Shown here piece by piece: positions 20,335 through 23,526 of a stretch of DNA of 64,000 nt. This stretch comes from Longimicrobiales bacterium (GTDB lineage: Bacteria; Gemmatimonadota; Gemmatimonadetes; Longimicrobiales; Gaopeijiaceae). The notes beneath the pieces were generated by a model. That model was not told the origin of the DNA. It saw only the letters and a list, made by a program, of their open reading frames with translations, and searched no databases. Every line of letters starts with the position of its first letter. The first letter of the stretch is position 1. The stretch is from the NCBI GenBank assembly GCA_965204735.1, contig OZ242008.1, positions 3,648,001-3,712,000 on the forward strand, given 5' to 3'. The position numbers and the translations under genes were made by a program.

Positions 20335-20946
20335 ATGAGCAACCGCCGTACGTCTGACGCTCCCGGCCTGTCGTTCCACGATGCGGTCCAACCCTTCCTG
20401 CGGGCTTGTCCAGGACCGGACTTGGCGATGAAGGGCCTCCGCATGGTCGCCTTCCAGCCTGTGCACGGTATCTGGCCGCCGCTTCCGAAGGTGACGGACC
20501 AAGTGCCATGCATCAGCGGGAGGACGGGCCGTTTCTCGGCGCCGGAACTCCGTCTCGGCGAGCCCGTCACTCCTCCCCACCGAGAGGAAGGAGGACGTCT
20601 GCGGAACGTAAAGGAGGTGGCAAGGGCGTTGCACTGCAGTCCACAGCACCTCGCCCGATTGGCCCATGCGCGAGGATACTCATACTCGCTGGCAGTGCGC
20701 TGGATTCGGTTCCTGCTGGGAGTCGAGCTGAAGAGCCAGAACTGCGGTGGAAAAACGATCGCCAAGCGGCTCGGAATGTCGGGGCCGGAAGGCTGGACTC
20801 GGTTTGTCGTTCGGGTAGTCGGGCGGTCCCCCAAGCAACTCCCCAACCTGACGATCGAAACATGGGCGCGGGAGGGCATGTCGCGGGTCTTCCTTGCACC
20901 GATCCAGGCCCCAAAACCACTTCCCAGTAACCTGACTGACCAATAA
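20335..20946 (+). CDS. AraC-type double-HTH transcriptional regulator (start uncertain)
   Basis: NVKEVARALHCSPQHLARL...RWIRFL...KTIAKRLGMSGPEGWTRFVVRVVGRSPKQL matches the AraC two-HTH pattern. Confidence 0.7.
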   Translation: MSNRRTSDAPGLSFHDAVQPFLRACPGPDLAMKGLRMVAFQPVHGIWPPLPKVTDQVPCISGRTGRFSAPELRLGEPVTPPHREEGGRLRNVKEVARALHCSPQHLARLAHARGYSYSLAVRWIRFLLGVELKSQNCGGKTIAKRLGMSGPEGWTRFVVRVVGRSPKQLPNLTIETWAREGMSRVFLAPIQAPKPLPSNLTDQ

Positions 20947-21071
20947 CCCGGTACTGGTCCAGTCCTCGTCTCTATACGGAGCCATCCACCAAATCCCGGT
21001 CTCGCGACAACGCCGAGCATCGAGGTTCGCACCAGCCCCCGGGCCTTGCTTCGCGTCCACGCCGACTTCGC

Positions 21072-21560
21072 TCAGGCCTCGTCTGGGCAGTTCCAGGGAC
21101 CCGGTTCACCAAGCATGCTTTCCAGACATTCGTCGCTTTCTGATTCTTCGTCCGGGTTGGCGCCTCCTCCACCACTACTGTCGTTCTCGGCCTCCTGATA
21201 GTAGAGCGATGTCGTGCAGACTTCCCACCAGAGCCAGCCAGCGCACGTCTCGTACTCCCAGCACAAGGCATCCCAGCCACCGCCGCAGCCTGCCGGCTGC
21301 GCCCACGCTGGCTGGAAAGCCGTGTCCTCTATGGCCTTGATCAGCGACATCGCAGCCAATATCCCCAGCCCAGCTCGGGTTAGGCCGTCTGCTACGACGG
21401 GCGAGACCCGCTTGTGGCCGAGTAACCTCAGGATCCGGTGTGCTGGCGAAATGTCGGCCGCGAATGCCTCTCCGCCTTTGCGTGCTTGGCGATCGTTGAC
21501 TCGGAGGGTGACGCCGACCAGGACAACAGCCGCTACGCCCAGGATGATCAGAACGGACAT
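21072..21560 (-). CDS. Secreted Cys-rich peptide precursor B (162 aa)
   Basis: RBS AAGGGGAG; two hydrophobic segments, AWA-Q cleavage site, core CGGGWDALCWEYETCAGWLWWEVCTTSLYYQE, acidic tail with two more Cys. Confidence 0.75.
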   Translation of the reverse strand: MSVLIILGVAAVVLVGVTLRVNDRQARKGGEAFAADISPAHRILRLLGHKRVSPVVADGLTRAGLGILAAMSLIKAIEDTAFQPAWAQPAGCGGGWDALCWEYETCAGWLWWEVCTTSLYYQEAENDSSGGGGANPDEESESDECLESMLGEPGPWNCPDEA

Positions 21561-21685
21561 GATTCTCCCCTTGTTGATGAGTATGCCTTATGAACTCGGG
21601 CAACGTGATCACCCGACCGCGGTACGTCTGATGACGATCCGGATTCCAGCCACTTGGAACACGCTCCGCCAGGACATCGGCAAGA

Positions 21686-21934
21686 TCATGATCGCTCCTG
21701 AAAGAAATAGTGTCGCGTCTTGCACGACCGGTTCATCCACAGGAAGTCTATCCCCGTGCAGACCTTGATCGTCATGCAGGTCGGCGGCGTTTCGCCGCCG
21801 CAGACACCCGGCGGGTGATGCTGTGCTGCGATCGGCGACACGCGGAACTCCGTTGCCGCCACGGCGATAATCGCCAGTGCAGCTAGCCCGCGCGCCAGCT
21901 TCGAGACTGTGTTTCGCCCGCAGTTCTTCTTCAT
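21686..21934 (-). CDS. Secreted Cys-rich peptide precursor A (82 aa)
   Basis: ATGA overlap with the propeller gene, RBS AGGAG; MKK..signal peptide..IAA-Q, core CGGETPPTCMTIKVCTGIDFLWMNRSCKTRHYFFQE; Cys spacing shared with precursor B. Confidence 0.8.
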   Translation of the reverse strand: MKKNCGRNTVSKLARGLAALAIIAVAATEFRVSPIAAQHHPPGVCGGETPPTCMTIKVCTGIDFLWMNRSCKTRHYFFQERS

Positions 21935-22974
21935 GAGCCTTCTCTCCTGAGTTGAAGGGCAACCACTGTTGGGTACAAACCCGACTCGTCTCCAGAAACT
22001 AGGAACACCTTGTCGTTCCCGGACACGGCGACCGAGGTGGTTCTCCAAGGAAGCAGCTGTGATCCCACATACCGACCCGTTGCAACCTCGTACTTGTCGA
22101 GTACGCGCCGACGCGCTCGCGTAGTGCCGCCGGGAAGCACCAGCAAGGTGTCGTGCTTCACGGCAAGTGAATAGACCGAGCGCGTGGCTCGAGCTGTGAA
22201 GCCGGTGACGGTCGTCCCCCGCGTCGGAGAATGCGACATGACTTCGGGAAAGTCGACATGCTCCACATAGGGATAGTGTCCGGCCACGGAATCGTATTTC
22301 ATTACAAAAAATCCGTTGCCTAGCTGGAAGCCGAACACCCACCTGTCGGCCGCACCTGCCGTCTTGCCGGACCATTGCATGGAATGCATTCGGCGGAAAC
22401 CGTCCCAGGGCACTGACAACGGCGTCACGACTTCTGTCTCGGGCTGAAACAGCAACCACGGAACCGGGCCGTTGTTGCTCAAGACTACTTCACCGCTCGA
22501 GAGTTCGACCACATCCGTGATAAATCCAAAGGAATCGTCGCTGATCGCCCGTTCATGGACCAACGTGCCAGCTGGCGAAAGGTAGGCCAGCCGCCGATTC
22601 CCCGAATCGGCTATGACTACGCCGCCTAGTCGCCACGAAGTCATCGCGCGGGCGTTCTTGAGCTCTCCTGGACCTTCGCCCTGTTGTCCCCACGACCAGT
22701 CAATCGTCCCGGAAGCAGAGAACTTGCTGATCGTCTGCAGCGTGTAGTCGAGCACGTAGACGCCACCGTCTTCGGCCGCGACCAGCGCGCCCGGACTGGC
22801 CAGCACGGTGTCGTCGGCGCCGCCGTAGGCCCAAAGCGTGTCGTACCTGATCCCCTGCACGGATCGTTCTCCCGCGCCTTCCGAGAACAACGACATGACG
22901 GGATACGCTCTCTGGTCGCCGCACGCCCCGAGGAGTGAAGTCGCGACGAGAACAGGCCCCATGGCACGCCACAT
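21931..22974 (-). CDS. 6-bladed beta-propeller lipoprotein (NHL-like)
   Basis: Lipobox LLGAC; VYVLD..ISKFSASG..WGQQGEGPGEL..VVIADSGNRRL propeller repeats. Confidence 0.85.
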   Translation of the reverse strand: MWRAMGPVLVATSLLGACGDQRAYPVMSLFSEGAGERSVQGIRYDTLWAYGGADDTVLASPGALVAAEDGGVYVLDYTLQTISKFSASGTIDWSWGQQGEGPGELKNARAMTSWRLGGVVIADSGNRRLAYLSPAGTLVHERAISDDSFGFITDVVELSSGEVVLSNNGPVPWLLFQPETEVVTPLSVPWDGFRRMHSMQWSGKTAGAADRWVFGFQLGNGFFVMKYDSVAGHYPYVEHVDFPEVMSHSPTRGTTVTGFTARATRSVYSLAVKHDTLLVLPGGTTRARRRVLDKYEVATGRYVGSQLLPWRTTSVAVSGNDKVFLVSGDESGLYPTVVALQLRREGS

Positions 22975-23526
22975 TTACTCAGCCCTCCTCTGGGCACCCA
23001 ACCGTGCGGCCAGTTGGGACAGATCGGCGCTTTGCGACAACGTGGACGATACGTGCTCCACAAAGAGCACTCGACCGTCGTCGCCTACGCCGACCACAAC
23101 CGGTGTTCCAGTCCATGCCGCGAACCCGGCAACCTCTCGCCACCGAACAGACTCATGGGTAAACCGGACGTTGGCCCGGTCCATAACTCTTTTTAGCGCG
23201 CTCTCCGAAGAACCGTCTGCGACGACCAGCCCCAACACCGCGACTCCGGTCTCCTTAAGGCGTTGCGCCAGCCTGCCGACGGATTCCAGCGTCTCCGCAC
23301 ACTCCGCCACTGTAGACACGACCATGATCCCACCGCCTCGATTCGCCATCATCTCCAGCCGGCCGGTGAAGTCGTTGGCCGCACTGTTCTCTGTCCAGGA
23401 CGTCGCCATGAACAGGCTGCACGCCACCGTCAGCGTCCCCGCGTACCAATGCTGCTTGGTCCAGTACCAGCACTCAGCAGACAGTTGGCGCACCGCTCCT
23501 CCGGTCCTTCCGGCTGTGACTCCCAT
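22975..23526 (-). CDS. Exported thioredoxin-fold protein with a degenerate CxxT active site
   Basis: RBS GGAGGG before ATG 23526; hydrophobic N-terminal segment; IMVVSTVAECAETLE, then GTPVVVGVGDDGRV (cis-Pro loop). The stop abuts the propeller ATG (TAAATG). Confidence 0.6.
   Translation of the reverse strand: MGVTAGRTGGAVRQLSAECWYWTKQHWYAGTLTVACSLFMATSWTENSAANDFTGRLEMMANRGGGIMVVSTVAECAETLESVGRLAQRLKETGVAVLGLVVADGSSESALKRVMDRANVRFTHESVRWREVAGFAAWTGTPVVVGVGDDGRVLFVEHVSSTLSQSADLSQLAARLGAQRRAE

Follow-up and report, generated by a model that had tools for sequence, protein, structure and literature searches.

Disulfide-bonded bacteriocins with dedicated thiol-disulfide oxidoreductases are known, sublancin with BdbA/BdbB being one example, and class II bacteriocins are marked by a net cationic mature peptide, a double-glycine leader and a dedicated transporter. 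In Bacteroidota, NVEALA genes are arranged with genes for 6-bladed propellers (PF17170, DUF5128), an arrangement for which no relevant paper was found in the open literature. NHLRC2 and SOQ1 are reported to carry a thioredoxin-like domain and an NHL propeller in a single chain, where the two enclose a ligand cleft, and to have a non-canonical motif, no classical reductase activity and, in SOQ1, a membrane anchor; the same report places the bacterial NHLRC2 homologues outside conserved operons (PMC6107167). SdbA of Streptococcus gordonii is reported to be active with only the C-terminal Cys of its CXXC motif (PMC12453122). Here we describe a gene cassette from a 64,000-nucleotide window (the whole stretch of DNA that was analysed, on contig OZ242008.1 of a Longimicrobiales bacterium) in which three unnamed families travel together, namely a 4-Cys peptide with a predicted hairpin core, a thioredoxin-like protein with a P-x-D-C motif and a subfamily of propeller lipoproteins. 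Systems in which a thioredoxin-fold protein is dedicated to an exported disulfide peptide are already known, but the combination found in this cassette is apparently undescribed, as the initial annotation of the sequence had supposed; searches of the open literature, at the level of listings and the starts of abstracts, found no description of it.

The three genes recur together. A 9-sequence profile of the thioredoxin-like protein was searched in 314 genomes of the bacterial family and matched in 37, mostly from two genera and in a patchy, multi-copy distribution; 40 of the 51 matches were analysed, omitting nine that duplicated training sequences, a fragment within a locus already included and genome G092. 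Peptide genes were called by a conservative, profile-free rule, a small Cys-rich open reading frame (ORF) with a hydrophobic leader, which missed peptide A of the window because of an upstream in-frame start. A propeller gene lies directly downstream at 34 of the 40 loci, a peptide gene is present at 34 and all three are found at 33, counts that, like those of the reciprocal search below, are not independent because the genomes are kin, and random same-strand 5-kb windows contained a rule-positive peptide ORF in 82 of 5000 cases (1.6%). The initial annotation had proposed a dedicated peptide cassette and had named, as its refutation, a failure of the three to co-occur, which is not what these loci show. 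In the reciprocal search, 401 genomes drawn from the whole phylum, Gemmatimonadota, were scanned with a peptide profile and 20 of them had a match; among the 13 peptide-anchored loci outside the training of that profile the thioredoxin-like gene was present at 11, the propeller at 9 and all three at 9, although the thioredoxin-like profile applied here had seven of them in its own training, L143, L144 and L147 being new. The nine complete loci keep the order peptide, thioredoxin-like protein, propeller and come from f1, f4 and f7, three families of the class. The identities of thioredoxin-like protein and propeller co-vary over 44 cassettes (Mantel rho of 0.75, reached by 0/999 permutations; the tree basis is a quick tree), which linked inheritance predicts as well. 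A loose association, in which the propeller is independent and the peptide and thioredoxin-like genes travel on a mobile island but do not interact, would agree with the many orphan propellers, the 63 propeller-profile matches in this genome and the island features described below, but the trio is kept in three families and with propellers that share only ~30% identity, purifying selection acts on each of its genes, and we regard this explanation as very improbable.

The window's two peptides had been presented as 4-Cys peptides, which is true of their cores and not of the whole proteins, since peptide A contains five cysteines and peptide B six. The core of peptide A reads C45-x7-C53-x5-C59-loop(TGIDFLWMNRS)-C71-KTRHYFF (about 21701-21802) and that of peptide B C92-x7-C100-x5-C106-loop(AGWLWWEV)-C115-TTSLYY (about 21198-21287). 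In peptide B the hydrophobic segments span residues 3-17 and 63-77, an additional N-terminal hydrophobic helix stands ~45 residues ahead of the signal-like segment, and an acidic tail holds two more Cys; long N-terminal extensions and Cys tails also occur in homologues at L017, L091 and L095. An alignment of thirteen full precursors shows a hydrophobic leader, then an Ala preceding the first mature residue, which is often Gln, and C1 and C2 in every sequence; the peptides are likely exported. For the cores we aligned 45 sequences, the window's A and B with 43 of 63 listed candidates, picked for the classical 4-Cys core so that the 20 candidates with other Cys patterns were omitted, and the consensus is C-x6-8-C-x5/7-C-hydrophobic loop-C-x5/7-Tyr-aromatic. 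C1 to C3 are invariant, C4 and a Tyr are conserved in at least 90%, and the distance from C4 to the Tyr matches that from C2 to C3: with a C2-C3 span of 6 residues the Tyr is at C4+6 in 33/39 peptides, and with a span of 8 residues the aromatic pair has moved to +8/+9 in 6/6. This tracking fits an antiparallel hairpin stapled by C3-C4 with the Tyr facing C2, and the core is therefore predicted to be a disulfide-stapled beta-hairpin in which the cysteines would pair in this way. Peptides A and B match no Pfam family, none of the 13 full-length precursors matches NVEALA (PF14055) or any Pfam entry at E<=0.08, an NCBIfam scan of the 45 cores returned nothing, no bacteriocin family was matched, the peptide profile found no PDB sequence below E 2, and a protein atlas search with a peptide had no usable match. 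The likeness to the NVEALA loci lies in small exported Cys-containing proteins beside propeller lipoproteins; of the present propellers 5/57 match PF17170 (E<=0.001; the window copy is not among them), whereas the precursors do not match the NVEALA family.

Between close cassettes the pooled ratio of nonsynonymous to synonymous substitution rates (dN/dS) is 0.34 for the peptides (15 pairs), 0.26 for the thioredoxin-like protein and 0.22 for the propeller; the homologous peptides are under purifying selection and behave as real genes. The cassette resembles sublancin-type systems in pairing a small exported Cys-rich peptide with a co-encoded thioredoxin-fold protein of presumed maturation function, but differs in its Sec-type instead of double-glycine leader, mostly anionic cores, a cxxC instead of a CxxC site and a propeller lipoprotein, and no recurring peptidase ABC transporter was seen in the cassette loci. 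Nor do the peptides have the features of class II bacteriocins, with Ala-x-Ala/Gln-type cleavage sites and a median core charge of -2 (A is +2 and B is -4); a cationic antimicrobial role appears unlikely because 32/45 cores are net negative. We also considered antagonism in a wider sense, with Sec-exported bacteriocin-like toxins acting through the hydrophobic loop and the propeller serving as immunity protein. Loops of 3-22 residues that are 59% hydrophobic and 29% Phe/Trp, dN/dS values of 0.67-0.90 in 4/15 peptide pairs, the patchy multi-copy distribution and an indel with an IS21-type end would all suit such toxins, but only 1/45 cores reaches a charge of +3, no pair exceeds a dN/dS of 1, no bacteriocin family is matched and a single propeller serves several different peptides, so this role seems distinctly unlikely.

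In the AlphaFold model of the thioredoxin-like protein (predicted local distance difference test, pLDDT, 84), a long helix at the N-terminus leads into a thioredoxin fold of the TlpA/ResA type, with the TlpA-type helix-strand insertion. ResA/DsbE proteins were the best Foldseek matches (E about 2e-5; VIA Z 10-11), in line with the thioredoxin fold that had been proposed. A search of 1.84 billion representatives gave 52 matches, a Pfam scan of 40 members gave nothing meaningful, and in the protein atlas the leads for a homologue all stayed below 0.9 and pointed to unnamed or thioredoxin-like clusters; matches of the profile to Pizza proteins were rejected as summed weak repeats. Cys76 is the sole and invariant cysteine in 40/40 aligned sequences, within a motif that is typically P-x-D-C in the family and V-A-E-C in the window copy. 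It aligns to the second, normally buried Cys of CxxC (CGPC / CKPC) by hhalign (92.8%, the targets being two TlpA proteins that occur in these loci) and in a weak alignment of the hidden Markov model to 2m72, and the predicted structure places it in the first turn of a helix; a reading of the motif as CxxT, with the first Cys kept, was dropped after the structural model and the profile alignments. The first-Cys position, three residues before Cys76, is occupied by P in 23, A in 9, V in 4 and L in 2 (n=40), and a CxxC dithiol site is not present in any of the 40 sequences. A Thr-Pro (T141-P142 in the window copy), in the loop before beta-3, is present in 38/40, and its position suggests cis geometry. 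With one invariant Cys at the second position ordinary dithiol chemistry is excluded, which weakens the proposal of a disulfide-handling partner. Sites of the cxxC type are reported to make up 7.6% of thioredoxin-fold sequences, typified by peroxiredoxins with T/S and Arg features (PMC2757866). The 1-Cys peroxiredoxins likewise keep a Cys at the second position only, but the present family is without T/S three before the Cys and has a cis-Pro in place of the Arg. By its sequence it is neither a standard TlpA oxidoreductase, because the first Cys is lost, nor a peroxiredoxin, because the T/S and Arg features are absent. SdbA, a TlpA/AhpC-TSA-like disulfide oxidase, belongs to the same fold class and is the tied best match to the model (Z 11.0), but it is naturally a CXXC housekeeping enzyme, whereas here the whole family has naturally lost the first Cys and its gene is linked to those of a propeller and of peptides.

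For the propeller, the AlphaFold model (pLDDT 93.5) is closest to NHL six-bladed propellers, the best Foldseek matches being NHL domains (E 4e-14), and the lipobox Cys18 is conserved in 53/57 sequences, which agrees with the beta-propeller lipoprotein of the initial annotation. Polar residues conserved in the subfamily include Q200, N220, Y236 and H239, the last being the only His conserved in >=70% of the 57; PAL amidating lyases are defined by several conserved metal-binding His, and the single one here argues against a PAL-type metalloenzyme. Mature propellers lack Cys in 44/57 cases and the peptides are the only Cys-rich exported products of these loci. All of the propeller-anchored loci assigned (22/22) are from Longimicrobiales or Gemmatimonadetes metagenome-assembled genomes (MAGs), and one propeller homologue (P0099) carries a Gammaproteobacteria MAG label. 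At L140, L141, L142, L143 and L150 the propeller has an N-terminal extension of ~140 aa with a membrane-spanning look (482-490 aa for the ORFs with an unambiguous start), which could be a transducer or an anchor.

A TlpA-like thioredoxin fold beside an NHL propeller recalls NHLRC2 and SOQ1, and the thioredoxin-like domains of both are among the fold matches of the thioredoxin-like protein (7djk, Z 10.3; 6gc1, Z 9.4), but there the domains are fused and carry CCINC, whereas here the genes are separate, the motif is PxDC and candidate ligands lie in the same module. In the absence of a specific sequence link we treat the relation as one of analogy, not membership; the 50 PDB sequence matches of the propeller profile and the listed Foldseek matches of the propeller include neither NHLRC2 nor SOQ1, although kinship may still exist. 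The three proteins might be subunits of a single stable assembly in the envelope, either a split NHLRC2/SOQ1-like or an amine-dehydrogenase-like one, with the peptide as a small disulfide-rich subunit or tethered to Cys76. The translational coupling of the genes for thioredoxin-like protein, propeller and peptide A, the near-fixed adjacency of the first two and the invariant Tyr opposite C2 are as expected for a complex, and so is the reported precedent of a redox-inactive thioredoxin-like domain that forms a cleft with an NHL propeller (PMC6107167). Such a complex is nevertheless quite unlikely in our view, as peptide number, position and loop vary freely, NHLRC2 and SOQ1 chains are missing from the 50 PDB sequence matches of the propeller profile and the loci inspected share no recurring enzyme for cofactor formation. 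A joint structure prediction of propeller, thioredoxin-like protein and peptide B core gave a score of 0.01 and a mark of 0.32, with an uncertain peptide fold and in a job unlike the calibration.

Starting from linkage, conservation, selection on the homologues, sequence motifs and predicted folds, we propose that the cassette works as a dedicated line in the periplasm that folds variable hairpin peptides and hands them on, a proposal to which we give an even chance. The peptides would be exported by Sec and cut by signal peptidase after Ala-x-Ala, usually before Gln; C3-C4 would staple the hairpin, C1-C2 close a small loop and the Tyr-aromatic pair pack opposite C2, leaving the variable aromatic loop as the presumed active payload, for which competitors, kin or a sponge host would be candidate targets outside the cell. 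The membrane-anchored cxxC protein may hold the peptide at its cis-Pro loop, and by analogy with SdbA acting through its C-terminal cysteine alone, its single cysteine could make or shuffle the peptide disulfides via a mixed disulfide. The propeller, possibly docked to the thioredoxin-like protein as in NHLRC2/SOQ1, would recognise the common stem and not the loop, and shield or present the hydrophobic peptide at the envelope. At L080, L082, L084, L085 and L088 a single pair of thioredoxin-like protein and propeller is shared by 3-4 peptides with very different loops, and across all loci there are 0-4 peptide genes, placed upstream or downstream and differing in the loop. One pair with several stem-sharing, loop-differing peptides therefore favours shared machinery with variable cargo over the rival explanations. 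A wider version, in which a split NHLRC2/SOQ1-like machine across the class folds and displays a library of stapled hairpins, with exchangeable aromatic loops that target other cells, sponge hosts included, is speculative and in our judgement somewhat unlikely.

Several observations weigh against the folding and hand-off line. The attacking cysteine is absent from the thioredoxin-like family and neither the T/S-x-x-C motif nor the Arg of peroxiredoxins stands in for it; the protein may equally be a non-catalytic scaffold or holdase. The anchor of the window copy is weakly hydrophobic, no 15-residue stretch reaching 1.6, and because of this its export is inferred from homologues, a qualification to the initial view that all four operon products look exported. 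The association is asymmetric, the propeller often being alone: a thioredoxin-like gene was found at 4/23 propeller-anchored loci (with an early 3-sequence profile), and 3/5 subfamily copies in this genome sit outside cassettes. There are also orphan thioredoxin-like genes at L010 and L107, peptide and thioredoxin-like genes without a propeller at L145 and L147, and lone peptides at L149 and L151. The cores were selected for the classical pattern, the register shift amounts to one or two events because the six long-arm peptides are close kin, and the dN/dS pairs of the peptides are homologues and not the window's own A and B.

The cassette takes different shapes within the genus and the genome. 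A second cassette of the same genome (L001, G000:C1:1970000-1972695) contains a thioredoxin-like gene, a propeller, a 3-Cys peptide, a second thioredoxin-like gene and another 3-Cys peptide that nearly duplicates the first, but only one propeller. Given their odd number of Cys, the two peptides might bond to one another or to the cysteine of the thioredoxin-like protein. In a congener the order is AraC-like, peptide, thioredoxin-like, propeller, peptide. L013:2398-8734 has two tandem thioredoxin-like/propeller units and five different peptides, with near-identical ORFs on both sides that resemble extracytoplasmic function (ECF) sigma factors, a label given from sequence appearance. Apparent damage is seen at L144:5712-6720, where the propeller is split over two frames by an apparent frameshift, and at L075, L023 and L090, where the cassettes look interrupted, with transposase-like ORFs in L075 and L023.

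Table 1. Coordinates of the cassette genes and associated features in the window.
Feature	Position	Strand	Remarks
Whole low-GC island	20055..23703		Between slt and the DUF885 gene
62-bp repeat	20136..20197	+	Likely IS21-family end remnant; 81-89% identical to copies elsewhere in the genome
Short AraC-like helix-turn-helix regulator	20335..20946	+	Conserved N-terminal C-P-G-P motif
Peptide B precursor, 162 aa	21072..21560	-	Two hydrophobic segments, predicted cleavage AWA/Q
Peptide A precursor, 82 aa	21686..21934	-	Signal-like segment 13-27, predicted cleavage IAA/Q
NHL-type beta-propeller lipoprotein, 347 aa	21931..22974	-	Lipobox LLGAC18
TlpA/ResA-fold thioredoxin-like protein, 183 aa	22975..23526	-	Long N-terminal helix, likely membrane anchor

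The gene layout is as the initial annotation had described it (Table 1), with the minus-strand order thioredoxin-like protein, propeller, peptide A, peptide B and the AraC-like gene converging from the plus strand; the thioredoxin-like stop and propeller start meet in TAAATG, propeller and peptide A overlap in ATGA, and 125 nt separate peptide A from peptide B. The lower guanine-cytosine (GC) content that had been noticed is also real, at 0.618 for the island against 0.693 for the genome, within the lowest 3.5% of 3.2-kb windows, with a third-position GC of 0.69-0.77 in the island genes against 0.89 in slt and the DUF885 gene, the flanking genes being assigned by Pfam to SLT (an SLT/TPR protein) and DUF885. 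In the congener G001 the slt and DUF885 matches are separated by 33 bp, an empty site, and the island was therefore inserted here or lost there. Two genomic copies of the 62-bp repeat lie directly upstream of IS21 transposase genes, and this resemblance of the island's left edge to a repeat associated with an insertion sequence (IS) makes IS-assisted acquisition plausible. One contig of run X1 spans 19500-24138 and two contigs of X3, a separate study, span 20978-24500, all with zero differences. No sigma-70 promoter was found, and terminator counts and repeats were at chance level. An antisense ORF (21032-20328) without a family match was taken as a shadow of the AraC-like gene. Elsewhere in the window, 25428-29847 carries tandem minus-strand lipoprotein-like genes with Ig-like and HExxH metallopeptidase domains, of which 25428-27368 has a Peptidase M66 match and the upstream paralogue is known from the ORF list alone.

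The AraC-like gene had been counted as a member of the cassette, and it does adjoin and converge on it, but its HTH_18 match is below the Pfam cut-off (26.9 bits against 33.6, E 6e-6) and it is found at only 3/40 thioredoxin-anchored loci. Its family occurs in 35/314 genomes, and 30 regulator loci show a propeller within 1.5 kb in 21 and a rule-positive Cys-rich ORF in 9, with only 4 (three and the window) being the present cassette. The gene is an accessory of propeller loci in general and is not specific to the cassette. These data bear on the possibility that the hairpins are diffusible signals, with the propeller lipoprotein as receptor and an AraC-like or ECF regulator closing a feedback loop. 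AraC-like genes beside the cassettes of L072, L073, L081, L017 and the window, the ECF-sigma-like ORFs at L013, the ligand-binding nature of NHL propellers and the mostly anionic cores speak for signalling. We nonetheless consider it unlikely, because the regulator is rare at these loci while its family accompanies many unrelated propellers, up to four dissimilar loops per propeller fit poorly to a one-to-one receptor, and no recurring kinase or anti-sigma transducer was seen in the loci inspected, where no systematic search was made. At L011:9263-9460 the AraC-like gene of G003 is broken at a G homopolymer, possibly a sequencing error.

Other Cys-rich ORFs accompany propellers as well. In this genome 7/25 rule-positive ORFs are near a propeller, against 4.5% of random positions, and small Cys-rich ORFs with hydrophobic leaders and other Cys patterns adjoin further propellers at G000:C1:70531-70755, 219058-219534, 896497-896835 and 899111-899590. 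Cys-rich exported-looking proteins stand beside propellers at L030:6665-7306 (minus) and L015:2571-3341, one of them ending in CSCSTQSDWC...CNGQCYFF. At L165, L166, L169, L173 and L176 the AraC-like family adjoins yet further unrelated Cys-rich small ORFs and propellers, which suggests a wider set of regulator-peptide-propeller loci in this bacterial family.

The host phylum is poorly cultured and its relatives include sponge symbionts; several of the relatives found by the propeller presumably come from sponges, to judge from their bin names. The peptides, at ~35 residues, are synthesisable and offer natural loop diversity on a fixed scaffold. If the proposed role of the PxDC family is true, it would show in nature that disulfide chemistry can run on the second cysteine alone, so far reported for SdbA variants, and a peptide-binding cleft between the thioredoxin-like protein and the propeller, if there is one, would provide a bacterial model for the ligand of thioredoxin and NHL proteins such as NHLRC2. 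Should the peptides indeed be displayed, the cassette would represent a class of peptide natural products that is invisible to enzyme-based mining for ribosomally synthesised and post-translationally modified peptides, and the first pair of thioredoxin and NHL proteins with a genomically named client. The presence of a regulator, a Cys-rich small ORF and a propeller at many loci suggests that a larger, unexplored repertoire exists in these bacteria.

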